Assembly (NCBI GenBank): GCA_050747905.1
Contig: JBOGKQ010000013.1
Coordinates: 3,529 to 67,528, forward strand
DNA from: Terriglobales bacterium
Lineage (GTDB): Bacteria > Acidobacteriota > Terriglobia > Terriglobales > SCQP01
Length of the DNA: 64,000 nt
Reading direction: 5' to 3'
Made by a program: the position numbers and the translations under genes
The notes under the pieces: generated by a model
Database searches by the model: none
Told to the model about the DNA's origin: nothing
The model's input: the letters and a program-made list of their open reading frames with translations, nothing else
Shown here: in pieces, positions 14,149-47,199 of the stretch
Layout: each line of letters starts with the position of its first letter
How positions within the stretch are numbered: position 1 is the first letter of the stretch

Positions 14149-14165
14149 GCGGTCTTAAACCCCCC

Positions 14166-27922: not shown

Positions 27923-28000
27923 GTCCCCGTCGTCTAGCCCGGCCTAGGACACCGCCCTTTCACGGCGATAACACGGGTTCGAATCCCGTCGGGGACGCCA
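27923..28000 (+). tRNA. tRNA-Glu (anticodon UUC), CCA encoded
   Basis: GTCCCCGTCGTCTAGCCCGGCCTAGGACACCGCCCTTTCACGGCGATAACACGGGTTCGAATCCCGTCGGGGACGCCA. The acceptor stem pairs GTCCCCG with CGGGGAC. Anticodon loop CUUUCAC; T-arm GGTTCGAATCC. Close to E. coli tRNA-Glu. Confidence 0.9.
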
Positions 28001-29087: not shown

Positions 29088-29474
29088 CTAATGCTTTTTC
29101 GACTCGAATAGCCTTTTGATCGCCTCCAGGCCGGCTTTTTGTCTCTTGACTTCCGCATCGCTGGCGCCGTCGATCGTAAGCTCGGCGTTAACGTCAAAGT
29201 CCTTTGGACGCCCATCCCTCTGCCACGCGGCGTGTAGCTCGGCGTGTCGAGCCCGTGCACTAACCAAACCGTGCAGGGCGACTGGCGCTGCCGGGCACAG
29301 ATTGCACAGTGGTTGGAGTGTGAAATATGGGGCGACGTCCCATCCTGCCTGGAACGCAGCGTCAGCGCTTTCGAATATTTCGGCATAACCGCAACAGAGA
29401 CATGTATACGTTGGCACGACTTCGGCACCTCGTCTTCTAGGCTTCTTCAGACCCAGGGACCGCCCGGGCTCCAC
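29088..29474 (-). CDS. Hypothetical Cys-rich protein
   Basis: 128-aa ORF with CLCCGY...CNLC. Overlaps the AbiEii 3' end by 28 nt, so the true start is probably internal. No recognisable family. Confidence 0.3.
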   Translation of the reverse strand: MEPGRSLGLKKPRRRGAEVVPTYTCLCCGYAEIFESADAAFQAGWDVAPYFTLQPLCNLCPAAPVALHGLVSARARHAELHAAWQRDGRPKDFDVNAELTIDGASDAEVKRQKAGLEAIKRLFESKKH

Positions 29475-30364
29475 TGCGCAGAAAACGGCTCCGCGGACCT
29501 GGCATATGCGAAGGGTTCGTAAAGGAAGCTCTGCAATTCTCGTACCACCTGCTCCAGGGATTCGAACTCGCTCTGTCGGCTTTTCATCACGAATGCCTTC
29601 CAGTTCGCCTGAGCCTTCGCATCCCGAATAAACCTCTCGCTGAGCGCCACAATCTCGCCATCCGGGAGAGGGGTGGCGCGGCGGCGAAACGTAGCACGGA
29701 GAGCAATGGCCAGCGATTCACCCTCAAAGGCAACGCGGCGGGCAGCCATGGCGAGGTCGCAAAAATCCTTCATCCGGCTATTCGAGATGCCGAGATCGAC
29801 CATGGCTTCGGCTTTCTCGGCCACGATAGTTTCTGTGGGATACGCGAGAACATGCGGCGCCACCATATCGGGGAGGAGTGTCGGAAATGCCAAGTCCAAT
29901 GCCGCAGGGGTGATCGCGTCGCCAAATCCGACGTCAATCTGGAGGTGGATGCGGGCGTCGGCAAGATTGGCCTGAATGACGGCACGCAGCCCGCCATAGC
30001 GATTGTCTTCCCGGATCGGATGCACCGCCAGAGTATTTGCATCGAAAACGAGTCCATCGTCATCAGCGCCCACGGAGACGATCTCGCGGAGTGCCGTATC
30101 GATGGCTGTCGCAGTGGTTTCACCCAAGCCGAGGAGATCAAGGTCTCTTGTGGCCCGATACTGTTCCCCGATGCGCACCGCGAATAGCATGGCACCCTTG
30201 AGGACAAACCGATCGCGGTACTTCGATATGGAAAGCCGATAGAGGAAACGCTCGGCGCCGTAGTTCATCAGCGTCAACGTAAAATCTTCGCGGCGCTCCT
30301 TGGCAATGTTCAAAAGGCGCGCCCTTACAGACGCGGAAACGTTCACCGGCGTCTTCCGTTTCAT
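29447..30364 (-). CDS. AbiEii/AbiGii-type nucleotidyltransferase toxin (type IV TA, DUF1814)
   Basis: SVRARLLNIAKERREDFTLTLMNYGAERFLYRLS...FVLKGAMLF...RATRDLDLL...IDVGFGD is the typical AbiEii N-terminal and NTase pattern. Confidence 0.85.
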   Translation of the reverse strand: MKRKTPVNVSASVRARLLNIAKERREDFTLTLMNYGAERFLYRLSISKYRDRFVLKGAMLFAVRIGEQYRATRDLDLLGLGETTATAIDTALREIVSVGADDDGLVFDANTLAVHPIREDNRYGGLRAVIQANLADARIHLQIDVGFGDAITPAALDLAFPTLLPDMVAPHVLAYPTETIVAEKAEAMVDLGISNSRMKDFCDLAMAARRVAFEGESLAIALRATFRRRATPLPDGEIVALSERFIRDAKAQANWKAFVMKSRQSEFESLEQVVRELQSFLYEPFAYARSAEPFSAQWSPGGPWV

Positions 30365-30957
30365 GACATCCCGTCCCAGTAAGGGCGCATGACTTTGGCA
30401 ACCCTCAGTCGATGCGCCTCACGCCACAGATCATCAACCGTGCCCTTGCGCAGGCGGCGATAGTCTCTAAGGGCCTCGACGGCGACATCAATGCCAATTC
30501 TGTTGCGGAACTTGAAGCAGTCCGCCACCGTCCTTGCCGGACTCGTCACGCGCACCTTGACACCGTCGATATTGTGGACTTCGATGCCCCCCGCTAGGGC
30601 TGCGCCCGAGACTCGGACAGTTCGGACCGGCGTGAAGTCTACTCGTGGTATTCCTGCGCGTCTGTCTACCGCGAGCCAAACCTCACGGGGATTCTCGGTA
30701 CCGAGGCTATGAAACCGAAGCGCGGTGAGCAGACAGAACGTGGCTTTAGGGACGCGTTTCGCCACTTCTGCCAGTGTGTGGTGTTCGGTCAGCTTAATGG
30801 TAGGTAGTGCATACAGTCCGCGCCCGACCCGCGTCAGTTCCCCCCGGCGCGTCAGCCGACGAACATGCTCGGGGTGGACGCCAACGGCTGTGGCTTCGGA
30901 CAGCCGAAACAGCCGTTTTTTTTGAGCCAGCCGAAGAATGCGTGCCTGGGGCTCCAT
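30361..30957 (-). CDS. AbiEi-family antitoxin/transcriptional regulator
   Basis: VRRLTRRGELTRVGRGLYAL...CLLTALRFHSLGT...ITSPARTVADCF. 4-nt overlap with the AbiEii start. Start taken at MEPQARIL. Confidence 0.85.
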   Translation of the reverse strand: MEPQARILRLAQKKRLFRLSEATAVGVHPEHVRRLTRRGELTRVGRGLYALPTIKLTEHHTLAEVAKRVPKATFCLLTALRFHSLGTENPREVWLAVDRRAGIPRVDFTPVRTVRVSGAALAGGIEVHNIDGVKVRVTSPARTVADCFKFRNRIGIDVAVEALRDYRRLRKGTVDDLWREAHRLRVAKVMRPYWDGMS

Positions 30958-31197
30958 CGCAATGTGTAATATTACTACCATTTGAATTTAAATGGTAGCG
31001 ATTCGACACGTCCGACCGGACGCCGGTTCGTCGAAACGGATTCCGCCCACATCGGAGCACCAACCTTGGTTACCACCCCGCAAAGGCGGTAACCGTTCAT
31101 GGTCCATTCATGGTCCAGTAGCCGTTCCCCAGGGTGCCAAACACGGTTTTGGGAGCCACCCGTGCCGTTGATTGTCAATGGGTTACGTGCAGTGGCG

Positions 31198-33734: not shown

Positions 33735-34670
33735 TTAGTTGGCCTTGGTCTCGGTAAGCGCCGCGATGATTTGGGAGGCAACGCGGGTGATGGATTCCAG
33801 CGATTCGCGGAGGGTGTCGCGGTCGCCATCGTAAAGGCTGATGTAGTCGGCGGAAGCGGTATTCATGTCCAAACCGACAGACAGTCCCACCGCGTAGGCC
33901 ACGGCCTCGGCTTCGGTTTCCTTGACCTTGCGGCTCAGTTCCTTTCGCCGTTCCCCGTCGTGCAGCAGTTCGTGTGCGAGTTCATGCACCAGCACGGAGA
34001 ATTCGCGGGCCGGTTCCAAGCCAGCGAGAATGTAGACCTTGCCCTTGGCGCTCAGCCCTTCCGCGCCGTCCAGGTTCTCCTTGTACTCCAGCGCGATGCC
34101 CTTCCGCTCGTACAGCGCCCTGATTCCTTCGAGGTCGCCTTCGAGGTTGGCCCCCGGATCGCCTTCCGCCTGGGGCGCGGATGGCAGCGGCTCCCCCACG
34201 GTCTGCGCCACATCGAACACATAGGCCACGCGGAAGCCGCACACCCGCTGCGAAGAGCCTTCCTGCGCATCTTCGGGGTCCGGCCGCTTTGTCAGGATGG
34301 GAGCCAAAATGTGGATGGCCCTTTCGTCCTTGCAAACCTGCCGTCCCAACGCCTGCCAGCGTTGGTACCCGGCGACATGGGTTGACTCGGGCCGCTGCGC
34401 GAGGATCAGAAGCTGGTTGCAAAAGCTGTAGCGATGAAACCGCGACATGACGCCCAGGTACTGCTGTATGGCATCGCTCCGGCCAGCTTCCAGCGCGTCC
34501 GCCAGCCGGTTGATAGCCTCTTCGCAGAGGATTTGCGCCTTGCTCTTTTTCTCAGGGGCATTTCTCTCAGCGCCCCCGCGCGCGCCGCCTGTGGACTCCG
34601 CCGGAAGCGTTGAGCCCGTGGCGGGCTGGAAGGAAGAAGTGCTTTCGGTGGTGATGATTTGAGAATTCAT
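33735..34670 (-). CDS. ardC: ArdC-like antirestriction protein (ssDNA-binding N-domain plus HExxH metalloprotease)
   Basis: RFHRYSFCNQLLILAQRP...GYQRWQALGRQVCKDERAIHILAP is a DUF1738-type N-domain. LVHELAHELLH is the zincin motif. Start MNSQ (cat 34668-34670) is preceded by GGAG. Confidence 0.85.
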   Translation of the reverse strand: MNSQIITTESTSSFQPATGSTLPAESTGGARGGAERNAPEKKSKAQILCEEAINRLADALEAGRSDAIQQYLGVMSRFHRYSFCNQLLILAQRPESTHVAGYQRWQALGRQVCKDERAIHILAPILTKRPDPEDAQEGSSQRVCGFRVAYVFDVAQTVGEPLPSAPQAEGDPGANLEGDLEGIRALYERKGIALEYKENLDGAEGLSAKGKVYILAGLEPAREFSVLVHELAHELLHDGERRKELSRKVKETEAEAVAYAVGLSVGLDMNTASADYISLYDGDRDTLRESLESITRVASQIIAALTETKAN

Positions 34671-34953
34671 GGTGTGCTCCTTTTTCTGCCCCGAAGCCTT
34701 TGGTGCGGGGCGCCCAAGGGCGAAGCGGGCCGCTCCCAAGGCCAAGGGCTGCATTCTTGGGGGGACCAGCGCAGCGTATGGGGGAGCCAAGAAAGCAGAA
34801 GCCCGCCGTGCCGCCAGGGCGCGGCAGTAGTCCGCTGAAGCCAGCGCCGCACCGGAGAGCGCAGGGGCGGGAGGGCACACCAGTCTCAATCACCGGCCGA
34901 AATCAACTGGATTGTCGGTCGCAGGAGGCACGGGCTGGATATCGGGGGGATCT

Positions 34954-35085
34954 CAAAAGCTGTAGTGATGAAACTGCGACATGACGCCGAAGAAATGCAG
35001 CATGGCATCGTGCTGGTCGGCTTCCATCGCATCCGCCCGCCGCTTGATCGCCGTTTCGCAGAGGATTTGCGCCTTGCTCGTTTTC
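34954..35085 (-). pseudogene. Truncated second ArdC N-terminal fragment
   Basis: About three quarters identical by eye to 34420-34550. Reads ...KAQILCETAIKRRADAMEADQHDAMLHFFGVMSQFHHYSF* and ends abruptly. Confidence 0.6.
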
Positions 35086-35184
35086 ACAGCGCCCCTTTCG
35101 GGGGCAAAGCCAAAGGCGCTCGCTTGCGACGCATCGAGATCGAGGTCCCGGTTGAGGTGGCGGGCTATACTGCCACTACCGCCA

Positions 35185-35841
35185 ATGAGCCTGATCAGGT
35201 CAAAGAAACGTGTTGCCGATCATGGAGAGGTTTTCACCCCTCCGTGGCTGGTCGAGGCGATGCTCGACCTCGTCAAGGGTGAGTCCGAGCGCATTGACTC
35301 GCGCTTCCTGGAGCCGGCGTGCGGTAGCGGAAACTTCCTCGTCCGGATTCTGCGACGCAAGCTCGCCGCCGTACAGATCAAGTACGGCAAGTCGGACTTC
35401 GAGCGCCGGAACTACGCCCTGCTCGCACTGATGTGCATCTACGGCATCGAGTTGTTGGGGGACAACGTTGCCGAATGCCGCGCGAACCTGCTCGAGATTT
35501 TCGCTGATTACCTGAACTTGGATGAACCGGGCGAACTATCCCGCGCAGCGTGCTGCGTACTGTCGCAGAATGTCGTGCATGGCGACGCGCTGGCGATGCG
35601 TGCCTCCGATGGCCAACCAATAACCTTTGCCGAGTGGGGCTACCTCGGCGCGGGCAAGTTTCAGCGGCGCGATTTCCGGCTCGACATCCTTACCGGTGCG
35701 TCCGCCTTCAGCGCGGAGGGCTCCCTCTTCGCCCACTTGGGCAAGCATGAAATCTTCACCCCGGATAAGACCTACCCGCCAATGACCGTGAGCGAGCTGG
35801 CCGCCGCCGCACACGGCGGCACGCCGAAGGAGGCCGCATGA
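35185..35841 (+). CDS. Methyltransferase-like SAM-binding protein lacking the NPPY catalytic motif
   Basis: GEVFTPPWLVEAMLDL (motif X), FLEPACGSGNFL (motif I), IYGIELL. No (D/N/S)PP(Y/F) anywhere in the 218 aa. ATGA overlap with the next gene. Confidence 0.6.
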   Translation: MSLIRSKKRVADHGEVFTPPWLVEAMLDLVKGESERIDSRFLEPACGSGNFLVRILRRKLAAVQIKYGKSDFERRNYALLALMCIYGIELLGDNVAECRANLLEIFADYLNLDEPGELSRAACCVLSQNVVHGDALAMRASDGQPITFAEWGYLGAGKFQRRDFRLDILTGASAFSAEGSLFAHLGKHEIFTPDKTYPPMTVSELAAAAHGGTPKEAA

Positions 35842-37445
35842 GCACGCAGGTTGGTTTTGCGCTGCGCGGCCGCAATCCGGATGTGCTTACGTGCATCGCG
35901 AACCTCTCAAATGACGAGGTGTTCACGCCCCCCGAGTTTGCGAACCGGATGCTGGACACGTTGACCGAGGCATGGGCCGCGAACCACAGTGGCGCGGATA
36001 TTTGGGCGGACGGGACGGCGACGTTCCTCGATCCGTGCACGAAATCAGGCGTCTTCCTGCGCGAGATCACCAGCCGCCTTAACAAGGGTTTGGCCGGTGA
36101 AATCCCGAACAGTCAGGAGCGCGTCGATCACATCCTGAACAAGCAGGTGTTCGGCATCGGGATCACGTATCTCACAAGCTTGCTGGCGCGTCGCAGCTTG
36201 TATTGCTCGAAACACGCCAACGGCGAGCATTCGATCACGAGGGGCTTCGAGAGCGACGCCGGCAACATTTGGTTCGAGCGTATCGAGCACGCGTGGGCGG
36301 GTGGCAAATGCAGGTACTGCGGGGCGAGCCAGAAGGCATTGGACCGCGGCGAGGCGCTCGAGACCCACGCCTACGGTTTTATTCACACCGGCGAAATCAA
36401 AGCTCGGATCGCCGAGCTGTTTGGAGGCGAAATGCAGTTCGACGTGATCATCGGCAACCCGCCGTACCAATTGGACGACGGCGGCTATGGCACAAGCGCG
36501 GCGCCGATTTACCAGTTGTTCGTGGAGAAGGCGCTCGAGCTCGATCCGCGCTACGCTGTGTTTGTGACGCCGTCGCGCTGGATGGCCGGGGGTAAGGGGC
36601 TCGACAAATACCGCGAGCGGATGCTCTCCGACAAGCGGATACGGCGTATCGTTGACTACCCGAAACTCTACGAGGGATTTCCGGGAGTGAAAATTCGCGG
36701 CGGCATTTCCTATTTTTTGTGGGACCGCGAACACCGCGGGCCGTGCATGGTGCAGACGATTTGGGACGGCCAGCCGACTGGCCCGGCGGTTGCGCGCCAC
36801 CTGGACGAGTTCGACGTCCTCGTTCGGCGCAACGAGGCTGTGCCAATTCTGAAAAAGATTAGGGCCAGAGGCGAGCCCACGCTCGATCGGAGCGTCTCCA
36901 GCCGTAAGCCGTTCGGATTCGCCACGAATTTCAGAGGGAAGCCGTCCGCGGCGGGTTTGAAGAGGCCCGTAAAGCTCTTCGAGAACCAGCGGGTCGGCTG
37001 GGTCGAACGAAAGGCTATTGCCGTTAACTCCGAATGGATTGACGACTGGAAGGTTCTCATGACGGCTGTCCAGGGGACGAGCGCGGCCGTCGAGACCAAG
37101 TTTTTGAGCAAGCCAGTCATCGCCGAGCCGGGAACAGCGTGTAGCGAGACGTATCTTGTCGCTGGCCATTTTGAGACCGAGAAAGAAGCGACCAACTTTG
37201 CGCGCTACCTGCGTGCTCGGCTTGTGCGCTTTCTAGTCTCACTGCGCAAGCCCACCCAGCACGCGACGCGCGACGTTTATTCTTTCGTCCCGCAGCTCCC
37301 GCTCGATCGTGTCTGGACAGACGCCAAGCTCTACAAGAGGTACGGGCTAACCAAGGCCGAGATCGCCTTCATCGAGTCGCAGGTCGCCGAACACGATGGC
37401 GAATTATTCGACGAGGTCGCTGTGGGCGAAACCGAGAATGAGTAG
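35838..37445 (+). CDS. N6-adenine DNA methyltransferase (Eco57I-methylase-domain type, gamma-class order)
   Basis: NDEVFTPPEFANRML, FLDPCTKSGVFL and FDVIIGNPPYQ (motif IV). Long C-terminal domain, presumably for target recognition. GAAGGAGG lies upstream. Confidence 0.85.
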   Translation: MSTQVGFALRGRNPDVLTCIANLSNDEVFTPPEFANRMLDTLTEAWAANHSGADIWADGTATFLDPCTKSGVFLREITSRLNKGLAGEIPNSQERVDHILNKQVFGIGITYLTSLLARRSLYCSKHANGEHSITRGFESDAGNIWFERIEHAWAGGKCRYCGASQKALDRGEALETHAYGFIHTGEIKARIAELFGGEMQFDVIIGNPPYQLDDGGYGTSAAPIYQLFVEKALELDPRYAVFVTPSRWMAGGKGLDKYRERMLSDKRIRRIVDYPKLYEGFPGVKIRGGISYFLWDREHRGPCMVQTIWDGQPTGPAVARHLDEFDVLVRRNEAVPILKKIRARGEPTLDRSVSSRKPFGFATNFRGKPSAAGLKRPVKLFENQRVGWVERKAIAVNSEWIDDWKVLMTAVQGTSAAVETKFLSKPVIAEPGTACSETYLVAGHFETEKEATNFARYLRARLVRFLVSLRKPTQHATRDVYSFVPQLPLDRVWTDAKLYKRYGLTKAEIAFIESQVAEHDGELFDEVAVGETENE

Positions 37446-39969
37446 ACCCATCGATGAGATCCTCGCACCGAAGCCGATTGCGCGGCCGAAGATCTACGCC
37501 TACTCGATTGCCGACGAGGCGCACGAGGGCCTCCTTAAAGTCGGACAAACCACCCGCGACGTGAAACTACGTGTGGCCGAACAGGTAAGGACCGCCGCCA
37601 TCAAGAACTACCGCATCGAGCTCGCCGAACCTGCCGAGCGCGACGTTGGGTCAGTCTTCACCGATCACGAGGTGCGTGCGGCTCTCGTAAGGAAGCGCTT
37701 CGAAAACGCCGACTTGGAATGGATGCGCTGCACCGTCGACGACGTGAAGACGGTTCTCGCCGAGCTTCGCGCCGGCCAAGAATTCACCGGGAGGCATTTT
37801 GCAACGTTCAAAATGCGCCGCGAGCAGACGGAGGCGGTGAAGAAAACCCACGCCTACTACCACTCGATCTGGAAGGAGGACATGCACGCCGTCCCGCGCT
37901 TCCTCTGGAACGCGAAGATGCGCTTCGGCAAGACTTTTACTGCCTATCAGCTCGCCAAGAAACTTGGCGCCAAGCGCGTGCTGGTCGTGACGTTCAAGCC
38001 CGCCGTCGAGGATTCCTGGCAGACCGAACTCGATGGCCATACGGACTTCGAAGGCTGGCAGTACCTCTCGAACTCCTCCGGCCGCGACCCGACGCAGGTC
38101 GAGCGTGGGAAGCCGGTCGTCTATTTCGGCTCGTTCCAGGACCTGCTCGGGCGCGATGCCGTCGGCAATATCAAGCCCAAGAATGAGTGGCTCCACGAGG
38201 TGAATTGGGACCTCGTGGTTTTCGATGAATACCATTTCGGAGCGTGGCGCGAGACCGCCAAGGAACTGTTCGAGGGCGAGGAGGATTCGAAGACCGAGGC
38301 CAAGCTCGAATACGACACCGGACTTGAGGAGGTGAATGAGGACCTTACTGTCCTGTCGGAGAAAGAGAGAGAGTTTCTCCCCATCACGACTAAGGCCTAT
38401 CTGTATCTCTCCGGGACGCCGTTCAAGGCGCTGGCCACGGGCGAATTCATCGAAGAGCAGATCTTCAACTGGACGTATACGGACGAGCAGCGCGCGAAAG
38501 AGGATTTCGCGAACGGGAACCCTGGAAAATGGAACCCTTACGGCGCGCTGCCGCAGATTCGACTGATGACGTACCAGATGCCGGATGAGCTGGTGGCGAC
38601 AGCGAGCGCCGGAGAGTTCGACGAGTTCGATCTCAACGAGTTCTTTGCCGCGACCGGCGCGGACAAAGGGGCACACTTTAAGCATCAGAGCGACGTGCAG
38701 AAGTGGTTGGACATCATCCGGGGCCAGTACGTGCCGAAGGCCGTCGAGAGCCTCAAGACCGGCACACGGCCGCCGTTCCCCTATTCGGACGTGCGCCTGC
38801 TGCCGTACCTGCAACACTCGTTCTGGTTCCTGCCCAATGTCGCCGCATGCCACGCCATGAAGAACCTGCTGGCCGAGAAGCACAACACTTTCTGGCGCGA
38901 ATACAAAGTAGTCGCTGCGGCCGGGGCTTCGGCGGGGATCGGACTTCAGGCACTGCCGCCGGTGCGGAAGGCGATTGCGAGCGGGTTCGACACCAAGACG
39001 ATCACGCTCTCGTGCGGCAAGCTCACCACCGGTGTCACTGTGCCGCAGTGGTCATCCATCCTGATGCTGCGCAACCTGAAATCGCCTGAGACCTATTTCC
39101 AGGCGGCGTTCCGCGTGCAGTCGCCGTGGTCCATCAAGAATCCGAATGGTGACGACCCGGGCGAGGAAGAGATTCTCAAGCCCGTGTGCTTCGTTTTTGA
39201 TTTCGCGCCCACGCGTGCGCTTCGTCAACTCTCCGAATACGGTATCCGGCTCTCGCCCAACGAATCGAATCCGGAAAACGCCATCAAAGATCTCGTGTCG
39301 TTCCTGCCAGTGCTGGCCTACGACGGCGCGAACATGACGCAGATTGATGCGGGCGGCATTCTCGACATCGCGATGGCGGGCACCTCGGCCACGCTGCTGG
39401 CGCGCAAATGGGAGAGCGCACTGTTGGTGAACGTGGACAACGAAACGCTGGGCCGCATCCTGAAAAATCCTGAAGCTATGGCAGCGGTGGAACGCATAGA
39501 GGGCTGGCGCGCGCTGGGTGACAACATCATTGAGACCATTATCAACAAAAGCGTAAAGGTCAAGGACCTCAAGAACAAGGCCAGAGACAAGGAGTTGACG
39601 AAGAAGGAGAAGAGCGTCCTCACCGAGGAGGAGAAGGAATACAAGTCCAAGCGCAAACTGGTGCAGGAGAAGCTGATCAAGTTCGCGGCACGCATCCCGG
39701 CGTTCATGTACTTGACGGACTTCCGCGAGAACACACTACAGGACGTCATCACCAAGTTGGAGCCGGATCTGTTCCTGGCTGTCACCGGTCTGACGGTCAA
39801 GGACTTCCATCTGCTCGTGCGCCTCAAGGTGTTTAACACCGAGCAAATGAACCAGGCGGTTTTCGCGTTCCGCCGCTATGAGGACGCTTCGCTGCGGTAC
39901 GCCGGCATCGAAAGCCACGAAGGGCTCTCCCATTACGGGCTGTACGATACCGTGGTGGGAAGGGAGTGA
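37438..39969 (+). CDS. GIY-YIG/T5orf172 nuclease domain fused to an SF2 (ResIII/SNF2-like) helicase; putative restriction subunit
   Basis: N-terminus KIYAYSIADEAHEGLLKVGQTTRDVKLRVAEQ is T5orf172-like. MRFGKTFTAYQLA is Walker A; VVFDEYHFGA is the DExH box. C-terminal helicase lobe. 8-nt overlap with the methyltransferase stop. Confidence 0.8.
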   Translation: MSRPIDEILAPKPIARPKIYAYSIADEAHEGLLKVGQTTRDVKLRVAEQVRTAAIKNYRIELAEPAERDVGSVFTDHEVRAALVRKRFENADLEWMRCTVDDVKTVLAELRAGQEFTGRHFATFKMRREQTEAVKKTHAYYHSIWKEDMHAVPRFLWNAKMRFGKTFTAYQLAKKLGAKRVLVVTFKPAVEDSWQTELDGHTDFEGWQYLSNSSGRDPTQVERGKPVVYFGSFQDLLGRDAVGNIKPKNEWLHEVNWDLVVFDEYHFGAWRETAKELFEGEEDSKTEAKLEYDTGLEEVNEDLTVLSEKEREFLPITTKAYLYLSGTPFKALATGEFIEEQIFNWTYTDEQRAKEDFANGNPGKWNPYGALPQIRLMTYQMPDELVATASAGEFDEFDLNEFFAATGADKGAHFKHQSDVQKWLDIIRGQYVPKAVESLKTGTRPPFPYSDVRLLPYLQHSFWFLPNVAACHAMKNLLAEKHNTFWREYKVVAAAGASAGIGLQALPPVRKAIASGFDTKTITLSCGKLTTGVTVPQWSSILMLRNLKSPETYFQAAFRVQSPWSIKNPNGDDPGEEEILKPVCFVFDFAPTRALRQLSEYGIRLSPNESNPENAIKDLVSFLPVLAYDGANMTQIDAGGILDIAMAGTSATLLARKWESALLVNVDNETLGRILKNPEAMAAVERIEGWRALGDNIIETIINKSVKVKDLKNKARDKELTKKEKSVLTEEEKEYKSKRKLVQEKLIKFAARIPAFMYLTDFRENTLQDVITKLEPDLFLAVTGLTVKDFHLLVRLKVFNTEQMNQAVFAFRRYEDASLRYAGIESHEGLSHYGLYDTVVGRE

Positions 39970-40099
39970 GGGGTGCGGGCCTTGCCTCAATAGAGCAATG
40001 TCGAGGTACCGGGACTCCCGAGCGGTGCCTTGCCTGAACATCTTGGTGGAATATGCCGATCGCAGCAACGTGGCGGCCTGTTATGGTCGAAGCCGGCAG

Positions 40100-40698
40100 T
40101 CACGGCGGCGCTGGTCGAGACCACCGCCTACACCGTCTGGTTCAGCGATTTGCTGGCAGGGTTGAAGGTGTAGCTGATCTTCGGCGACGCCGCCAAACTG
40201 GCGGCGATCGGGGTGCTGTAGGTGAAGGCCGACCGCCGCGTCGCCGAGCAAATGCTGGAAGCCTATCTGCGAGGCCAGTTTCCGGAGGTGAAGATGGCGT
40301 GGCCGGAACAGCGCGGCCTGCGGGAGCTGCTGCTGCTGCACCGGAACCGGCTGGTGTGGACCCGAACCCGGTTCAAGGACGGGCCACACCTGCTGGCCAT
40401 GAGACGGGGGATCAACCGCAAAGCTGGGCTGTTCAGCCCGGCGTGGCGGCAGGTGCTGAACCAGTTGCGGTTGAGCCGATGGGAGAGCGAGGCGCGCAGC
40501 GATCTGTTGCTGGCGCCGGATGCCTTGAAGCCCCGCATCGGGGAACTGGACCAGGCGGTGAAAGAGGCGGTGCGTGCCAATGCCCTGGCCGAGCGCTTGC
40601 GCACTCATCCCGGAGCCGGGCCAGTGACGACGCTAGCTTGGGTGCAGATCATGGGCGATTGCCGGGATGCTACGATTGTGGGGTTTCAAGAGGCTTGA
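40100..40698 (+). pseudogene. IS110-family transposase relic (both ends missing, two in-frame TAG codons)
   Basis: Frame reads AALVETTAYTVWFSDLLAGLKV*LIFGDAAKLAAIGVL*VKADRRVAEQMLEAYLRGQFPEV...LLLLHRNRLVWTRTRFK...HPGAGPVTTLAWVQIMGD. TAG codons at 40171-40173 and 40219-40221. No DEDD N-terminus or C-terminal Transposase_20 region. Confidence 0.7.
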
Positions 40699-40704
40699 GC
40701 GCCA

Positions 40705-41319
40705 ATGGGCTGTTTTCTCTGCTCTCCCGATCCGGCGTTGGTCTACGCAGCGAACGCCGAGGCTTTCGCGCTGTGCGGACTGGGGCCCCTCGTGCGCGGT
40801 TATAGCATCGTTGCGACGCGAGCCCACGTCCGATCCTGCGCCGACTCTGCCACGGAATCCCCGTCGCTCTTAGAATTCACCGAGCAGATCAGGGGATTTT
40901 TGGGCTCGATCTACGGGTCCTGCTTGGTCACGGAGCACGGGCGCCTGCCGGTCTGCGCCAGGTCAGAGGGCTCGGGGGGACACTGCTTCCACGCACATTT
41001 CCTGCTATTTCCCCGAGCCCCCGACATTGTCAATGCCTGCCGGCCCTATTTTGGACTGGCAGAGGCCACCAGCGGCCTCGGGCCCACAATGGCCCTTGCC
41101 TGCGGACGACAAGAATATTTTCTTGTGGCACCGACGCCCACCGAGTGCTGGATCATGACTCGGCCACTCCTCCTATGCCGCCAGTTCGCACGCCGGATGG
41201 TCGCCGATCGGCTTGGCATCCCCGAGGAGGCGGACTGGGCGATGCACCCCAAAGCCAACGCCGCAGAGTCGGAGGCCGAACACCTCCGGCGCCGCGTGCT
41301 AACGTGGGCGACGCCGTGA
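40705..41319 (+). CDS. HIT-like (histidine-triad fold) protein
   Basis: N-terminal CFLC. GLGPLVRGYSIVATRAHV parallels D..P...GH.LV.PK.HV. GGHCFHAHFLLFPR parallels the HxHxHxx-PR triad. Confidence 0.6.
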   Translation: MGCFLCSPDPALVYAANAEAFALCGLGPLVRGYSIVATRAHVRSCADSATESPSLLEFTEQIRGFLGSIYGSCLVTEHGRLPVCARSEGSGGHCFHAHFLLFPRAPDIVNACRPYFGLAEATSGLGPTMALACGRQEYFLVAPTPTECWIMTRPLLLCRQFARRMVADRLGIPEEADWAMHPKANAAESEAEHLRRRVLTWATP

Positions 41320-42530
41320 ACCAGAACAGGGTGGCCGTTCTGCTTGAAAAGCTTGCGGAGAAATTCGACACCGCCATCCAACAGGAAGGAGGCGCGACGT
41401 CCCAGTGGGGATGGGGGCAGTTCCTGGACGATTCAAAAGAACGGAGGCAGATCGGGCCCTACGGCACGTCAGCTGGCATGATCGTGAGGGCCCTTGCCCA
41501 GGGCGTAGGCGCAGCACCTGACGCGAGGCCTTCGGCGATCATAACCAGCTGGTGGCGCGAGTGGAAATCCGGGAGCGGGAGCGGGCGCAAGGTGTTCTGC
41601 CAGAACCTTCGGCTCGCATTCTTCCTGCTCGCGCTCCGCCTGTCTTCAATTGATGCTGCCCTCTCAGCCGAGGCCGAAGAGGAACTCCTAAAGCGAAACC
41701 TGGGCGACGACATGTGGGGGGATTACTGGGAATCCGATACGGACCACGACATGACCCCAAGCCATCTCGTTACATCTACGGTTGTGCTCGCATTTACGCT
41801 ATGCCAGCCAAGCCCCGAAGGGCAGACGGTATCGCGGCTGAGAAGATCCGTTGTTCGGCTCGAGCAGCGCTTGCTCGGCGACCCGCAGATGCCGGCCCTC
41901 CAAGCCTCATTCGCGGCCGCAGCAATAATGGCCCTTGGACCCCAAAACGCAAGAGCCATCAGAAAGCAAATCGCGCGATTTGCCATGTCGCGCGATTTTT
42001 CGCTCGCCGACCTCGGGGTGTACTTTTACGAGTACAAGTGTGACGGCAAGGCCGGCACGGATTACTTCATAGCGCCCCCGGCCATTGTCCTGGCGACCGG
42101 GGCATTCAGCTCGTCTTCCCCGATCCTTCTCCGGCAATTTGGCGAACAAGTTGCCGCACGCCTGGCGAAGAGCTTAGAAAAAAGCGACTACGGCTTCAAG
42201 CCGGACGCCGAGCAGAGAGTGTCAACGAAGAATCAGGCTTGGGCCGCGCTCCTGCTTAAGGCCTCGTTATCGCCAAACGCCAATCCGACCAGCCTCGCCG
42301 GCATGGTGTGGTACGGACTACTGCGGGAGCGTCCGGGTAACTGGTGGACCGAAATTGTCTTCCCAGTGGCTTTGATCGCGGCCAGCGCCACCGAGGCGAC
42401 ATTCATAGGTAAGCTCGGCATCGGTTGGCTCTTCGCGGCCGCGACCCTTGGCCAGGCGGCCGTCTTCGGTATTGCAATTCGCCACCTCCTCCCGTACTGG
42501 GACCGACTGTTCCCCACGGCACGCTCATGA
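41316..42530 (+). CDS. Hypothetical helical-repeat protein with C-terminal TM helices
   Basis: GTG start inside a GTGA overlap with the upstream stop. SQWGWGQF...GPYGTSAGMIVRAL and MWGDYW...HLVTSTVVLAF resemble alpha/alpha-toroid (prenyltransferase/terpene-cyclase-like) repeats. The C-terminus WWTEIVFPVALIAASA...IGWLFAAATLGQAAVFGIAI is hydrophobic. Confidence 0.55.
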   Translation: MNQNRVAVLLEKLAEKFDTAIQQEGGATSQWGWGQFLDDSKERRQIGPYGTSAGMIVRALAQGVGAAPDARPSAIITSWWREWKSGSGSGRKVFCQNLRLAFFLLALRLSSIDAALSAEAEEELLKRNLGDDMWGDYWESDTDHDMTPSHLVTSTVVLAFTLCQPSPEGQTVSRLRRSVVRLEQRLLGDPQMPALQASFAAAAIMALGPQNARAIRKQIARFAMSRDFSLADLGVYFYEYKCDGKAGTDYFIAPPAIVLATGAFSSSSPILLRQFGEQVAARLAKSLEKSDYGFKPDAEQRVSTKNQAWAALLLKASLSPNANPTSLAGMVWYGLLRERPGNWWTEIVFPVALIAASATEATFIGKLGIGWLFAAATLGQAAVFGIAIRHLLPYWDRLFPTARS

Positions 42531-43795
42531 CCATTTTCGACCCGATCTACGGACCCTGCGATCTGGCGCCGAGGCTCGCCGAGCTGGCGCTTGCCCCGGA
42601 GGTTCGGCGCCTCACCCAAATTCGACTGCTAAATACATCCAGCCCAACTCTTGCCACCCTGGGGGAGCTGCGGCGATACTCCCACACTCTGGGCGTCCTC
42701 AGGCTCGCTCTGATCAACGGGCAACCCGGATACTCCCCGGAGGAAAGGGCCGCCTTTGCCGCGTCCGTTTTGATACACGACATTGGGACCCCGCCCTTCG
42801 GTCACCTGATGGAATACCACCTCCGCGAGCAGCTTAGCTGGAGCCATGAGGAGGTCGTTGCCCGCATGCTTTGGGGTCTGCACACCGACGAGAATCTTTC
42901 CCACCAGATATTCGCCGGTATGACTCTGGAGGTGCGACGCATACTGAAAAGGCGGAGGATTTCTCTCGACATTGTTCGGAAGATACTTACGAAAGACCAC
43001 CCGCTGTCCCGGTTGCTGTTCGGGAGCATCGATCTCGACAATCTCGACAACGTCGCGAGAATGGCCTGGGCCGTCGGCATCACCTGTGTGGACTCAACCC
43101 TGGCCCTTGCGGCCGCTCTCTCGGTCTCCAGAGACGGTCGGCTGCTGCTCCCTGAATCGTGCCGACCTGCGGTGGAGCGTTGGGCAGGAACGCGGCGCAG
43201 CGTCTACGAAATTCTTCTTTTCGATCCCGCCACGGTAGCGAGTCAAGCGGTGCTCTCAAAGGCCATTGGCATCGCCATGACGGCAGGTGACATCGGCGGC
43301 GCGGACTGGTGCATGTACGACGAGACGCTTCTGGAGAAGCTCCGCCAATCACCGGGCACCCGCAAGCTCGTTACGTCTTTCCTCGGGCGCCTGCCAGGCC
43401 CTATATACGCGTTGAATTTGCGGGGGACTCTGGCGAGCTATGGCCTCGGGAACCGAGCGGCCGCGGTCGGGGCCGCCCTTTCGTCCCTGGGAGCACATCG
43501 GAGCGGCGACTGCATCGCGTATGCATTTGTGGACAAGGGCGCGACTGCCAAGGCCCTTGAATTTGCGGATCCTGCGTCGGGCAGAACGTGGTGCTTTGGC
43601 GAAACCTCCGAGAGCGTGGTATTCTCCGTGTTCTCATACGGTCGCCCCGAGAGAAAGGAGGCTACTGCGGCCGCCTCGCGGCTACTCCGCACCCTCGGCG
43701 CGCGGCCAGATGACGTGATCCGCGTGCAAATTGGTCGTGACCGTCCGGCATATAGCTCTGGCAATGACAAACAGCTTACTCTCCAGGCTCTCTAA
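42527..43795 (+). CDS. HD-domain phosphohydrolase, SAMHD1/dGTPase-like
   Basis: MTIFDPIYGPCDL, RYSHTLGVLRLA, VLIHDIGTPPFGHLMEY and GSIDLDNLDNVARMA follow the H...HD...D order of dNTP triphosphohydrolases. ATGA overlap upstream. Confidence 0.8.
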   Translation: MTIFDPIYGPCDLAPRLAELALAPEVRRLTQIRLLNTSSPTLATLGELRRYSHTLGVLRLALINGQPGYSPEERAAFAASVLIHDIGTPPFGHLMEYHLREQLSWSHEEVVARMLWGLHTDENLSHQIFAGMTLEVRRILKRRRISLDIVRKILTKDHPLSRLLFGSIDLDNLDNVARMAWAVGITCVDSTLALAAALSVSRDGRLLLPESCRPAVERWAGTRRSVYEILLFDPATVASQAVLSKAIGIAMTAGDIGGADWCMYDETLLEKLRQSPGTRKLVTSFLGRLPGPIYALNLRGTLASYGLGNRAAAVGAALSSLGAHRSGDCIAYAFVDKGATAKALEFADPASGRTWCFGETSESVVFSVFSYGRPERKEATAAASRLLRTLGARPDDVIRVQIGRDRPAYSSGNDKQLTLQAL

Positions 43796-44918
43796 AATCG
43801 ATTGGGACTTCGCCGGCTACATGAGCGAGTCGTCGTTTTCGGCGGTCCATTTCCACCCTAGCCGCTTCGCCTCCCAAATTCCAGCGGCTCTGATCGGGCT
43901 TATGAGCAGACCCGGAGACCTCGTTATGGATCCGTTCTGCGGCTCTGGCACCACCCTCGTCGAAGCGCAGCGCCTGGGTAGAAGGTCAATCGGGATAGAA
44001 CTCAACCCGGTTGCCGCGATGGTTAGCCGCGCTAAGACCCAGTGCAAATCCGCGAAGCGAATCGGTGCCGTCATCAGAGACCTCAAGGAGCAGGCGGAGG
44101 CAACAATTCGGGCAGGCCACATCTTCGTCCGCTCGGGGCCAGCGACCACTCCGGCTACGGTGCAGGCAAGCAAGTGGTACGGCCCCAAGGTCGCGCGGGA
44201 CTTGGGCTTGCTCTGGGCAGCGAATCTGAAGCTTACTGGCGTCCACCGGCTGCTCGCCGACACGGCCTTCTCCGCCATCCTTTTGACGGTCTGCAGGGAG
44301 ACGCGACACTGGGGCTACGTCTGTGACAACACGACCCCAAAGGGCCAGCGCAATGCAGACGTGCTAAGAGAATACTGTGCCCTGCTTGAGCGCCTTGCCC
44401 GGGCATATCGCGACCGGGACGAAGAGATGGAGGTCGCCGGGCACACGCTCCCAGCCGCCACGGTACTGTCAGGCGACGCATTGCAGGTGATGGAAGGCAT
44501 AACTAAGTCGACCGTAGATTTGGTCGTGACATCGCCGCCGTACTTCGGCGTCTGCGATTACATAAAGGCGCAGCGGCTCACGATGGAGTGGCAGGGCACC
44601 AAAATTGAGCCGCTCCGAGCCGAGGAGATTGGGGCTAGAAGCAAGCGCCACAGGAAGACCGCCGCTTGCGAATACATCGAAGCAATCAGTCGGGCTTTCC
44701 AATCCATGGCCCGTTGCGTGCGGCCTGGCGGGGGTCTCGCGATCGTGCTGGGCCAGTCCGACACCCGCGATGAGGTACTGAATGATCTCAGGGCGGCAAT
44801 CTCAGCGGCCAAGATGTCAATCGAGCAAGAGCTAAACCGCACGGTATCGACCCAGCGGCGACTCGCACCCAGCTTGCGGGGCGAACATCTGTTTATCCTG
44901 TCGGCGAGGCAACGATGA
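43764..44918 (+). CDS. SAM-dependent methyltransferase (DPFCGSGTT motif I followed by SPPY motif IV)
   Basis: IDWDFAG...VHFHPSRFASQIPAALIGLMSRPGDLVMDPFCGSGTTLVEAQRLGRRSIGIELNP, then VDLVVTSPPYFG. The start is uncertain (43764 or 43821). Confidence 0.75.
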   Translation: MTNSLLSRLSKIDWDFAGYMSESSFSAVHFHPSRFASQIPAALIGLMSRPGDLVMDPFCGSGTTLVEAQRLGRRSIGIELNPVAAMVSRAKTQCKSAKRIGAVIRDLKEQAEATIRAGHIFVRSGPATTPATVQASKWYGPKVARDLGLLWAANLKLTGVHRLLADTAFSAILLTVCRETRHWGYVCDNTTPKGQRNADVLREYCALLERLARAYRDRDEEMEVAGHTLPAATVLSGDALQVMEGITKSTVDLVVTSPPYFGVCDYIKAQRLTMEWQGTKIEPLRAEEIGARSKRHRKTAACEYIEAISRAFQSMARCVRPGGGLAIVLGQSDTRDEVLNDLRAAISAAKMSIEQELNRTVSTQRRLAPSLRGEHLFILSARQR

Positions 44919-45943
44919 CCCTTCGAGATTTGGGCGAGAGGCGCATTCTGAGGGAGGTCCTGCCAGAGTTCTGCCCGCTTGCGGGCGACGATTGCACCTT
45001 CCTAGCCCGCGACCTCTCCGGCATTGTGATCACCACGGACCCAGCCCCAGAGCCAGCCGCCAAGCTAATCGGCCGAGATGCGGACCCGTATTGGCTCGGC
45101 TGGCTGCATGTCACAATCAACGCTTCAGATATAGCCGCGGCCGGGGCGGCGCCCCTAGCCTTCGTTAGCGCGCTCGAGTTGCCGCCTGACTATGAGTTGC
45201 CCGATCTGAAGAGGCTCCTCGCAGGCACCAGGGAGTGCTGCGCGTTGCACGGGTTCACCTACGCCGGCGGGAACCTGAAAGAGGCCACCCGGGTTTCGGC
45301 CGTGGGGACTGCAATCGGCGCCGCAGAACCCCGGCGTGTGTTGGGCCGGGGCGGGGCACGGGCGGGCGACGTCGTCGTTAGCGTCGGCGAGTGCGGGATC
45401 TTCTGGCGGGACGCGCTGGCTGCGCATTCGGGCAAGGAAGTTGCGGACAAGGCACGCTCCCCGTTGTTCGCCCCTCGCGCCCAAACAGGGCCGATGCGGG
45501 CGCTTGCGGCGCAGGGTCTCATTACCGCAGCGATCGACAACAGCGACGGGCTACTCCCGTCACTTGAGCAGCTCGCTATAAGCAGCCGTGTCGACATCAC
45601 CGTCAATCTGGAGAACCTCGTCCCCCCTCCTGACGCTCCTGCCGGCCTCGATCCCGCTCGGCTTTGGCTAGGCTGGGGTGACTGGAACGTGGTCGCCACG
45701 ATGCGGGTCGGCGACCTGGCGAGCGCTAAACGGCTGGTTGCGCACGAGGGCGTGCCGGTTACGCCGATCGGCTACTGCTCGCCGGGCACCGGTAGCGTAG
45801 TCCTAGAGAGGGCAGGAAGGCGCTCTATCGCGCCCCGCCTTGAGTCCGAACGGTTCGCGGCAGATTCGTGGTTCGGAACCGGCGTAGACGGCTACATTAA
45901 ACTGATAAGGACGGTCGAATTACCCTCGCCCCCGACCCTGTAA
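44915..45943 (+). CDS. PurM/ThiL-fold ATP-utilising enzyme (AIR-synthase-related protein)
   Basis: LGERRILREVL...GDDCTFL...VITTDPAPEP...GWLHVTINASDIAAAGAAP...YAGGNL...GARAGDVVV follows the ThiL/PurM pattern. ATGA overlap upstream. Confidence 0.8.
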   Translation: MTLRDLGERRILREVLPEFCPLAGDDCTFLARDLSGIVITTDPAPEPAAKLIGRDADPYWLGWLHVTINASDIAAAGAAPLAFVSALELPPDYELPDLKRLLAGTRECCALHGFTYAGGNLKEATRVSAVGTAIGAAEPRRVLGRGGARAGDVVVSVGECGIFWRDALAAHSGKEVADKARSPLFAPRAQTGPMRALAAQGLITAAIDNSDGLLPSLEQLAISSRVDITVNLENLVPPPDAPAGLDPARLWLGWGDWNVVATMRVGDLASAKRLVAHEGVPVTPIGYCSPGTGSVVLERAGRRSIAPRLESERFAADSWFGTGVDGYIKLIRTVELPSPPTL

Positions 45944-46363: not shown

Positions 46364-47185
46364 TTATCCCGAAAGCGCCCTTGTCACGGTACGCTCTGCA
46401 TAGTACGCGGGATCGTGCTTGTCCTGCCGGCATTCGGCAAGTGCCTGCTTTACCTTCTCTGGGGACATGCCGGCCCGGAGCTGGTCACGCACCCAAGCCC
46501 AGTCGCGCTCGGACTGGCTCAGAAGTCGCGCATCGCGCCGAAATCTCCCAGGGGCGGCCTGCCGACTGGCCGGTCGGTCTAGGGGCCAATCCGCTGGCAG
46601 AGCGGCGAAGTCACCTCGCTGGTAGACAGCTTCGGCGAGGCGATGCCCCTGAACACCGACCGGCTCATTGAACTTCTTGTTGTGGAATCCGGGCAGGCGC
46701 AACACACGGGCAGCGTCTGTTGCGGCAGGATCGCCACCAAACGCGGCGGCCATGCGGTGCAGGGCGACCTCGGCTTGCTCAAGCGTGAAACCTTCGACCT
46801 TCCAGATGACCTGGCGTTTGGCGGGCGAAGTGTCCAGGACGAAGTTCGGCTGGGGCAGCGCGGGACTGTCGAGGATTTGCTGGAGCCTTGCATCGCCCTC
46901 TTCGTCGAGGTCAAGGTAGAGATGGCGGATATCGGCGATGTCCGCTTTGGCGCGACCCCTGGCTTCGGACTTGAGCGTATTCATGGAGACGTAAATGTCT
47001 GAGCCGTGGGCGTTCTCGTAACGGAGGAAGCGCTGGATGCGGGGCGAAGCTGCATCCTGGGCTGACAGCAGCCGCTGGAGGGTGTAGTCCTCGGCACGGT
47101 TGCGGATCACGATGGCTATCCGGTCATGGGGGCGGTAGTTTTCCTTGATGAAGTCCCACGAAGTGACGGGCGCATTGGATTCCAT
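46364..47185 (-). CDS. RepB/TraC-type primase (AEP primase-polymerase fold) of a plasmid or ICE
   Basis: DIYVSMNTL, LYLDLDEEG and LRLPGFHNKK, plus a C-terminal helical domain. Start MESNAPV (cat 47183-47185) is preceded by AAGGAGG. Confidence 0.7.
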   Translation of the reverse strand: MESNAPVTSWDFIKENYRPHDRIAIVIRNRAEDYTLQRLLSAQDAASPRIQRFLRYENAHGSDIYVSMNTLKSEARGRAKADIADIRHLYLDLDEEGDARLQQILDSPALPQPNFVLDTSPAKRQVIWKVEGFTLEQAEVALHRMAAAFGGDPAATDAARVLRLPGFHNKKFNEPVGVQGHRLAEAVYQRGDFAALPADWPLDRPASRQAAPGRFRRDARLLSQSERDWAWVRDQLRAGMSPEKVKQALAECRQDKHDPAYYAERTVTRALSG

Positions 47186-47199
47186 GTATGCCTCCTTGC

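Follow-up and report, generated by a model that had tools for sequence, protein, structure and literature searches.

Three translationally coupled open reading frames (ORFs), here called g1, g2 and g3, fill positions 35185-39969 on the plus strand of a 64,000-nucleotide (nt) stretch of DNA from a Terriglobales bacterium (the window). Very probably they encode a restriction-modification (R-M)-type defence system, with g2 as the predicted specificity and modification subunit and g3 as the predicted motor-nuclease. We give somewhat better than even chances to a more particular design, a split, Type ISP-like, three-subunit, ATP-dependent R-M system whose nuclease would be of the GIY-YIG type; g1 would supply or control the binding of S-adenosylmethionine (SAM). 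What takes the locus beyond routine R-M annotation is an obligatory half-methyltransferase, reciprocal motif loss between g1 and g2, one-chain derivatives in phages, and extreme conservation and spread.

Layout and spread of the trio

35185..35841, plus strand: g1, 218 amino acids (aa) from the ATG at 35185
35838..37445, plus strand: g2, 535 aa
37438..39969, plus strand: g3, 843 aa

The original prediction, made from the sequence without database searches, described three coupled ORFs with an ATGA and an 8-nt overlap and quoted several motifs; all of these were present when the sequence was read again. The ATGA at 35838-35841 forms the g1/g2 junction and was read directly. The 8-nt overlap of g2 and g3 (37438-37445) holds provided that g3 begins at 37438, a start that agrees with the N-termini of its homologues. 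DNA similarity across loci begins at 35151-35209 (in many loci at 35180-35185, the g1 start) and ends at 39956-39978, the g3 stop, without a conserved flank on either side. These boundaries mark the locus as a predicted self-contained, horizontally mobile cassette with the g1 ATG and the g3 stop as its limits. A scan of 34600-40400 returned 0 promoter-like sites, and terminator-like sites at chance level.

Relatives of g1 were found in at least 541 species (scanning one genome per species) belonging to at least 12 phyla. Among the hosts are Alpha-, Beta-, Gamma- and Deltaproteobacteria, Nitrospira, Spirochaetota, Planctomycetota, Bacteroidota, Cyanobacteria, Chloroflexota, Firmicutes, Verrucomicrobiota, Acidobacteriota and Actinomycetota. 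By tblastn, the order g1-g2-g3 was seen in essentially every locus of sufficient length. When a metagenome search was seeded with g3, g1 lay upstream in 60 of the 62 loci that had at least 2.4 kb of upstream DNA. The short gene is conserved beside g2 and g3 in other genomes by both measures. Close trios are plasmid-borne in Pseudosulfitobacter, Sphingopyxis, Rhizobium, Deinococcus and Corynebacterium. Across phyla, g1 and g3 are ~72-87% identical, and synonymous sites are saturated.

The association extends to distant relatives. Downstream of g1 relatives at 40-50% identity, on metagenomic and IMG/VR contigs, g2-like and g3-like genes were still present. Distant trios occur on plasmids of Mycolicibacterium (g3 43% identical) and Legionella (g3 28%), with a short first gene in each. 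Enterococcus (locus L167) has a 248-aa g1 homologue (37% identity; motifs X, I, II and the EW hairpin kept) and, after an 8-nt overlap, a 1445-aa helicase-methyltransferase fusion. Judging by the tblastn pattern, this fusion exists in other Lactobacillales too. Because the distant and the Enterococcus loci retain a g1 homologue, the g1-type subunit outlasts deep divergence and fusion of its partners.

Some copies of the locus contain accessory modules. A Peptidase_M78 (ImmA/IrrE-like) and DUF4411 pair can separate g1 from g2, a YhcG/DUF1016 nuclease can separate g2 from g3, and an AAA_21 ATPase pair with IS110 can follow g2 (L215:8167-11032). Inserted modules were mapped at L030:10666-12308 and at L021:10817-12459 and 14062-15321. 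Embedded modules are familiar in Type I operons, for example DUF1016 among the core genes (PMC9881135).

g1 as a predicted half-methyltransferase

Four methyltransferase motifs can be read in g1: motif X (GEVFTPP, aa 14-20), motif I (EPACGSGNFL, aa 43-52), motif II (YGIE89L) and motif III (GD134AL). The Pfam family N6_Mtase matched with 23.6 bits (cut-off 20.4) and MmeI_Mtase with 25.6 bits, under its cut-off of 27. As originally reported for g1, the motif NPPY is absent, and the broader pattern [NDS]PP[YFW] was missing from g1 and from 210/210 distinct homologues. Position 89 is acidic in all 209 homologues (E in 167, D in 42), position 134 is D or N, and the SAM-binding motif columns X, I, II and III are invariant or near-invariant. 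The g1 profile aligned with a Type I M subunit and with CamA, and YGIE89L fell on the YGAD motif II of CamA.

The AlphaFold2 (AF2) model of g1 has a predicted local distance difference test score (pLDDT) of 88 and a predicted template modelling score (pTM) of 0.83. Its strands 41-44, 85-89 and 130-134 carry motifs I, II and III and are followed by a hairpin and a helix; a loop at 176-193 is disordered, and the C-terminal segment is well packed (pLDDT 94, aa 191-210). Foldseek of this model against the PDB returned exclusively gamma-class N6-adenine methyltransferases (BsaXI, CamA, LlaBIII/LlaGI, DrdV, BrxX and EcoKI M). The matches span ~100-140 columns with a TM score of 0.3-0.4 on the query, i.e. 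the SAM-binding half only. Beyond this half, one further element was located.

35746..35781 (aa 188-199), plus strand: beta-4/motif IV relic of g1, HEIFTPDKTYPP, aligned by MAFFT to QFDVIIGNPPYQ of g2 and the one-chain phage enzymes described below

The relic was also recovered as the second high-scoring segment pair when g1 was compared with g2 by BLASTP, and alignment with the one-chain relatives places g1 LFAHLGKHEIFTPDKTYPP over LFADLMQFDVIIGNPPYQ. The protein ends ~20 aa beyond the relic, without motifs V-VIII or a target-recognition domain (TRD). Because of the Foldseek half-match and the relic alignment, g1 is read as a truncated protein, a putative gamma-class methyltransferase cut off just after strand beta-4/motif IV, with motif IV degenerate. 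A conserved hairpin, F.EW.Y...RRDF (aa 146-165), is inserted between motifs III and IV. It was considered as a substitute for NPPY and ruled out, because the one-chain phage enzymes have both, with the hairpin upstream of a normal NPPY.

The original prediction had called g1 a methyltransferase paralog of g2. Its derivation from a methyltransferase stands; as a paralog, it is only a distant relative. Similarity to g2 is confined to motifs X-I (BLASTP E = 6e-4; hhalign probability 96% over 65 columns), so g1 is not a recent copy of g2.

Searching a 90%-cluster database with g1 gave at least 8000 matches, and the best 120 were nearly all 217-219 aa long and 79-85% identical. An exhaustive search of 50%-identity representatives yielded 340 g1 clusters at E < 1e-30, with nearly all listed members short. 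Against eight relatives, and with dS saturated, dN/dS was ~0.10 for g1, 0.07-0.19 for the N-half of g2 and 0.05-0.13 for g3. g1 is a conserved gene under purifying selection. A decaying, functionless duplicate without conserved homologues is ruled out by the thousands of ~218-aa homologues, by the 340 clusters, by dN/dS of ~0.1 across the whole gene and by the obligate association with g2 and g3. Truly decayed copies of the locus look otherwise, with g2 or g3 frameshifted.

Stand-alone proteins of only 132-199 aa with the g1-type half-methyltransferase fold are also encoded by phages (BFVD entries A0A8S5TY28, A0A1B1P8M5 and Q58MW7). A0A8S5TY28, of 199 aa, matched g1 with E = 5e-10 and TM 0.65/0.71; BFVD matches also came from Klebsiella phage KpV477 and Prochlorococcus phage P-SSM2, and PHROGs has short families matching g1 (phrog_21201 and phrog_4376). 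These proteins could be SAM binders or decoys.

g2 as the methyltransferase and predicted seat of specificity

g2 matched the Pfam family Eco57I (E = 3e-37) and gave no MmeI family match. It can be divided into three parts.

35838..36431 (aa 1-198), plus strand: g2 N-half, with motif X DEVFTPP, motif I FLDPCTKSG and motif II FGIG108IT, which lacks the acid; 75-97% conserved
36432..36737 (aa 199-300), plus strand: g2 catalytic core, starting MQFDVIIGNPPYQ, with NPPY at 36456-36467; Eco57I
36738..37445, plus strand: predicted variable target-recognition region (~aa 301-480) and then a more conserved C-terminal segment, delimited by the conservation profile

The catalytic motif GNPPYQ lies at aa 206-211; all 162 sequences retain N207-P-P, and 161 of them retain Y210. 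The g2 profile aligned with motifs IV-VIII of CamA. PDB sequence and profile searches with g2 gave nothing useful, and NCBIfam had no model for g3 and only sub-threshold matches for g1 and g2.

The conservation profile of g2 is high over aa 1-300 and variable over ~300-480. When 137 distinct sequences were clustered at 60% identity, aa 291-490 fell into 27 clusters and aa 1-200 into 2. At the DNA level, most loci lose homology at ~36480-36640 and regain it at ~37400-37450. Such a variable C-terminal block is the pattern of a target-recognition domain and places the predicted specificity in g2.

The original prediction had assigned specificity, or else regulation, to g1. Nothing in g1 compares with the target-recognition block of g2, and for this reason g1 is not regarded as the specificity subunit; a regulatory role is possible. 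We consider it very improbable that g1 is a specificity subunit or, in a weaker version, a functionless remnant of a duplicated methyltransferase. In favour of these views, g1 is methyltransferase-derived, lacks catalysis and has a visibly degenerate motif IV. Against them, g1 has no variable region or TRD and stays ~75-85% identical while the TRD of g2 changes, and the selection, cluster and synteny data given above speak against a remnant.

A Cys/His-rich insertion was observed between motifs II and IV of g2 (window 36204-36320, aa 123-161). All 162 sequences have C123, C158 and C161, and H151 and H183 do not vary. The insertion looks like a possible zinc ribbon; it is absent from the fused Enterococcus protein.

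Reciprocal motif loss and one-chain phage enzymes

Position 108 of g2 is G, A or S in 162/162 sequences and never D or E; the acid of motif II is lost. The two proteins thus show a reciprocal pattern: g1 always has the motif II acid and never NPPY, and g2 has NPPY (161/162) and never the acid. The distant proteins of locus L084, Mycolicibacterium, Legionella and Enterococcus repeat this pattern. By-eye alignments and a non-significant HMMER segment equate g2 G108 with the CamA Asp and with g1 E89, an equivalence that is suggestive.

Phage genomes hold both halves in one chain. On an IMG/VR contig (L187, 5653-7224), a 523-aa protein is g1-like over aa 1-183 (76% identity), and over aa 184-513 it shares 86% identity with residues 196-525 of a trio-type g2 of Ramlibacter, TRD included. 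No similarity to the N-half of g2 was found in this protein. A second lineage is represented by the 520-aa one-chain enzyme P0433 (the ORF L188:317-1879), found on 24 contigs. In the five places examined (L252-L256, e.g. L252:3143-4705), it lies just upstream of a T7-like RNA polymerase gene, and its host contigs carry a T7-type single-stranded DNA-binding protein, endonuclease I and primase-helicase. Further one-chain members are P0392, P0393, P0394, P0420 and P0446. Neither the g1 tail nor the N-half of g2 nor g3 is retained in the phage forms.

The L187 and P0433 fusions show that a g1-type N-half and a g2-type catalytic half together build a complete one-chain methyltransferase domain. The phage enzymes are probably early anti-restriction methyltransferases, and the g1 half would be the part that matters for methylation. 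That g1 contributes a functional SAM site to methylation in the trio is a possibility to which we assign somewhat less than even chances.

The main rival reading makes g2 the complete, self-sufficient methyltransferase and g1 a non-catalytic accessory, an allosteric SAM sensor or structural pseudo-partner that couples cofactor level or assembly to restriction, for example by delayed or licensed cutting in a new host. Inactive methyltransferase paralogues such as METTL14, Trm6 and the second Mod protomer of Type III enzymes offer analogies. In its favour, motifs X, I and IV are present in g2, whose match covers the entire Eco57I domain; the SAM-contacting motifs of g1 are all kept under strong purifying selection without a catalytic loop; and g1 is separate even where helicase and methyltransferase are fused. 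High mobility of the cassette would create a need for control of establishment. This reading has to account for two facts: the motif II acid is missing from g2 at all depths sampled, and the phage one-chain enzymes pair a g1-type, not a g2-type, N-half with the g2-type catalytic half. The phages' choice suggests that the g1 half is catalytically useful. We regard the accessory role as rather unlikely.

Two other arrangements were examined and rejected. The ORFs P0451 and P0438, which have only the C-half of g2, are products of decay or frameshift and do not represent natural systems of g1, a g2 C-half and g3. In L186, g1 is followed by a 339-aa g2 C-half, and the sequence stops soon after. The candidate phage orphan g1-g2 pairs, L215 and L211, have insertions after g2 (AAA_21 ATPase, IS110, another ORF) and no clear absence of g3.

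g3 as a predicted motor-nuclease

37495..37764 (aa 20-109), plus strand: g3 T5orf172 (GIY-YIG clan) putative nuclease domain; Pfam 26.4 bits (cut-off 20), 2-99 of 101 profile positions
37807..39297 (aa ~124-620), plus strand: g3 superfamily 2 (SF2) helicase/translocase core; Pfam ResIII at aa 124-276, PHROG DNA helicase families, PADLOC PDLC03626
39298..39969 (aa ~621-843), plus strand: g3 C-terminal domain, helical, with a K/E-rich coiled-coil-like stretch, highly conserved

The Pfam T5orf172 and ResIII matches bore out the original proposal that g3 joins a T5orf172-like N-domain and an SF2 helicase. No Pfam or PDB match was found for the C-terminal domain. The helicase motifs comprise Walker A (GKT, 164-166), motif II (DEYH, 263-266), motif III (SGT, 325-327) and motif VI (Q555..R559), and all of their residues are kept in 144/144 distinct sequences.

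The N-domain contains KIYAYS and LLKVGQTTRDVKLRVAEQ. Among the same 144 sequences, Y20 is kept in 142, Y22 in 141, K34/G36 in 144, R45 in 144, H77 in 130 and E94 in 144. With residue roles assigned from PMC8263062, Y20/Y22, K34/G36, R45, H77 and E94 would be the GIY, YIG-like, Arg, His and Glu positions of GIY-YIG nucleases. The T5orf172 protein Odn of phage ICP1 cleaves DNA in vitro, and a mutant of the Glu loses cleavage (PMC8263062). The Pfam match and the conserved catalytic residues thus point to a GIY-YIG-type nuclease in g3. GenBank/PGAP labels g3 homologues as "restriction endonuclease" or "GIY-YIG nuclease family protein". Searches of PDB sequences with g3, its profile and its N-domain found nothing.

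Proposed mechanism

The variable region of g2, the intact motifs of g3, the accessory modules and the PADLOC match make the locus look like an ATP-dependent R-M-type system, in line with the original prediction. Type ISP, Type III and MmeI-family enzymes use one methyltransferase-TRD protein both to recognise an asymmetric site and to modify one strand; a helicase-nuclease partner communicates between sites with ATP and cleaves unmodified DNA. In the mechanism proposed here, g2 would recognise an asymmetric target via its variable C-terminal region and N6-methylate adenine there. g3 would dock on g2, translocate using ATP and cut unmodified DNA with its N-terminal T5orf172 nuclease. g1 would work with the catalytic half of g2, supplying or gating a SAM site that is partly lost from g2; to bind the cofactor, whether for methylation or for licensing restriction, the system would then need a subunit with a gene of its own. 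The phages' answer would be a single chain, expressed early, that links the N-half of g1 to the C-half of g2. The content and order of the genes, selection, the motif patterns, the variability of the TRD and the existence of fused forms were observed; restriction activity, translocation, physical contact between g1 and g2 and the identity of the SAM binder are what we infer.

A bolder form of this mechanism is a two-piece enzyme. In it, g1 would be the sole competent SAM pocket and dock on the catalytic half of g2, and the degenerate N-half of g2 would be reused as a switch or coupler to the motor-nuclease. One exchangeable subunit would then control both self-protection and the attack by g3, and the phages would have welded the halves into a constitutive early methyltransferase. 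We put this forward tentatively and consider it rather unlikely.

Several points weigh against the three-subunit design. g2 keeps its own motifs X and I and a full Eco57I match and may be a self-sufficient methyltransferase. That its motif II acid is lost is suggestive but would not prove that SAM binding is gone. Nor would g1 have an obvious docking site if the N-half of g2 is packed against the C-half in the same chain. The AF2 model of g3, computed from a shallow alignment (78-87% identity), has a pLDDT of 44, with the N-domain below 50 and values of 70-89 confined to aa ~660-750. No solved helicase, LlaBIII and EcoP15I included, shows detectable sequence similarity to g3. Protein evolution of g1 and g3, which are 80-87% identical between phyla, is unusually slow for presumed defence genes. 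Finally, the closest studied analogue, DnmA-YeeB-YeeC of B. subtilis, shows no restriction or phage defence (PMC9973331).

The last two points would suit a trio that does not cut at all and acts through methylation, as an exclusion, epigenetic or addiction module that is BREX-like or an orphan relic; T5orf172 would then be a DNA-binding or regulatory domain. The B. subtilis operon methylates without restriction, slow protein evolution is atypical of arms-race genes, and some T5orf172 proteins have been domesticated as regulators, for example CapR of PLE (PMC8096241). We hold such a role to be improbable. The Tyr, Arg and Glu of the GIY-YIG domain are kept in 141-144 of the 144 sequences and the helicase motifs are all intact. 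TRD diversification and phage-borne cognate methyltransferases are signatures of attack on unmodified DNA, and yeeAB mediates phage resistance in Vibrio crassostreae (doi 10.1101/2021.05.05.442762).

Relation to known systems

Type ISP enzymes (LlaGI, LlaBIII) are the closest to the trio in architecture. The activity set is shared: a nuclease, an SF2 helicase-like motor and a gamma-class N6-adenine methyltransferase with a C-terminal TRD. In distant relatives of the trio, a single chain of 1445 aa carries helicase and methyltransferase in the Type ISP order, and the g1 model weakly matches the methyltransferase domain of LlaBIII/LlaGI. However, a Type ISP enzyme is a single polypeptide of nuclease, helicase, methyltransferase and TRD, whereas the trio has a methyltransferase gene followed by a motor gene, plus g1 as an extra obligatory half-methyltransferase subunit. 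The Type ISP nuclease is Mrr-like PD-(D/E)xK; the N-domain of g3 is T5orf172 and gave no PD-(D/E)xK family match. A further Type ISP trait is ATP-driven translocation with collision-dependent cleavage, which the trio may or may not share. Searches of PDB sequences with g3, the g3 profile or the fused Enterococcus protein revealed no homology to LlaBIII/LlaGI.

In PADLOC, g3 (profile positions 179-800) and g2 (1009-1354) fell on one 1359-position REBASE-derived fused model, "REase_MTase_IIG", and g2 aa 199-515 on the 348-position model "MTase_II". Since PGAP names g3 homologues and these REBASE-derived models cover fused relatives, the kind of system is already catalogued. A literature search, with REBASE entries outside its scope, found no paper that describes the trio or its short subunit, the reciprocal loss of motifs or the fusions in phages.

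DnmA(YeeA)-YeeB-YeeC is likewise a three-gene operon with a gamma-class methyltransferase-TRD, an SF2 helicase and a T5orf172/GIY-YIG domain. Its methyltransferase is a large MmeI-family protein, whereas g2 is of the Eco57I family and has 535 aa. Compared by description, not by sequence, helicase (YeeB) and T5orf172 (YeeC) are separate there and fused in g3. The trio differs in its third component, the short half-methyltransferase. An R-M function for gene cohorts of methyltransferase, helicase and GIY-YIG was predicted in 2009 (PMC2731913), with a further mention in 2012 (PMC3553950).

Type III systems (Mod/Res, EcoP15I) also pair a TRD-bearing methyltransferase with a helicase-nuclease; g3 has a Pfam ResIII match, and the annotation of one g1 homologue reads "type III restriction endonuclease subunit M". 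For single-TRD enzymes such as these, asymmetric sites and modification of one strand are expected. Mod, however, is beta-class (PF01555, N6_N4_Mtase) with a central TRD, whereas g2 is gamma-class with the motif order X-I-...-IV and a C-terminal TRD. The nuclease of Res is C-terminal and PD-(D/E)xK, whereas the only nuclease-like domain of g3 is N-terminal and GIY-YIG-type. Type I systems have separate HsdS, HsdM and HsdR; the trio gave no Methylase_S or HsdR family match, and its variable region lies inside g2. Among phage orphan methyltransferases used for anti-restriction, P0433 and L187 resemble the trio in that they join the g1 N-half and the g2 C-half in one chain. They are single genes in phage early regions, with a predicted activity and a predicted cognate specificity.

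If the proposed design is true, the trio is among the most widespread and most conserved R-M-like cassettes of environmental bacteria, so far unstudied, with thousands of metagenomic copies, 12 or more phyla, and locations on plasmids and predicted viral (IMG/VR) contigs. It would be a GIY-YIG-type, multi-subunit counterpart to the Type ISP enzymes and would bring in a novel type of subunit, half a methyltransferase that binds the cofactor and is never catalytic alone. Reciprocal motif loss and the phage fusions form a natural experiment on the parts needed for methylation, so that the switch between modification and restriction can be tested directly. With its variable region on an otherwise invariant scaffold, g2 is a potential source of new methylation and cleavage specificities.

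Genomic context in the window

The trio lies within a ~21-kb region (~28-49 kb) with a G+C content of 0.59-0.65, compared with 0.66-0.72 in the upstream 18-28 kb. The following features were located in or at the edge of this region.

27923-28000: tRNA-Glu, at the region edge, adjoining the G+C drop
29447-30981 and 46364-49280: AbiEii/AbiEi toxin-antitoxin pair, RepB primase, VirB11-like ATPase fragment and TraG/TrwB-like fragment
33735-34889, minus strand: ArdC (ArdcN E = 4.5e-9; HELAHELLH motif)

The tRNA-Glu, the G+C drop and the RepB, VirB11-like and TraG-like remains indicate that ArdC and the trio probably share a decayed integrative conjugative island of ~21 kb. An offence-and-defence pairing of ArdC with the trio had been suggested. 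No other examined locus has ArdC beside the trio; the adjacency is incidental and has no bearing on the function of the trio, because the pairing is not conserved elsewhere.

Just downstream of g3, a 158-aa ORF (40222-40698, plus strand) has THPGAGPVTTLAWV, reminiscent of the C-terminal part of IS110-family transposases; no Pfam match was found for it at E < 0.001. Farther downstream, ARAGORN called a tRNA-Ser(GGA) at 51639-51715 (plus strand) inside a 1292-aa ORF (49566-53444, minus strand) with He_PIG and Ig-like domains. Either the tRNA or the overlapping ORF is probably spurious.

Five co-directional, partly overlapping ORFs follow directly after the trio (40705-45943, plus strand).

204 aa and 461 aa: two ORFs, no Pfam match
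456 aa: HD-domain protein (dGTPase match weak, E = 6e-4)
395 aa: beta-class N6_N4 methyltransferase (SPPY)
342 aa: AIR-synthase-like protein (PurM/ThiL/HypE family)

Apart from the weak dGTPase match, only the methyltransferase among the five had a PADLOC match. The group could be a second modification or defence module.

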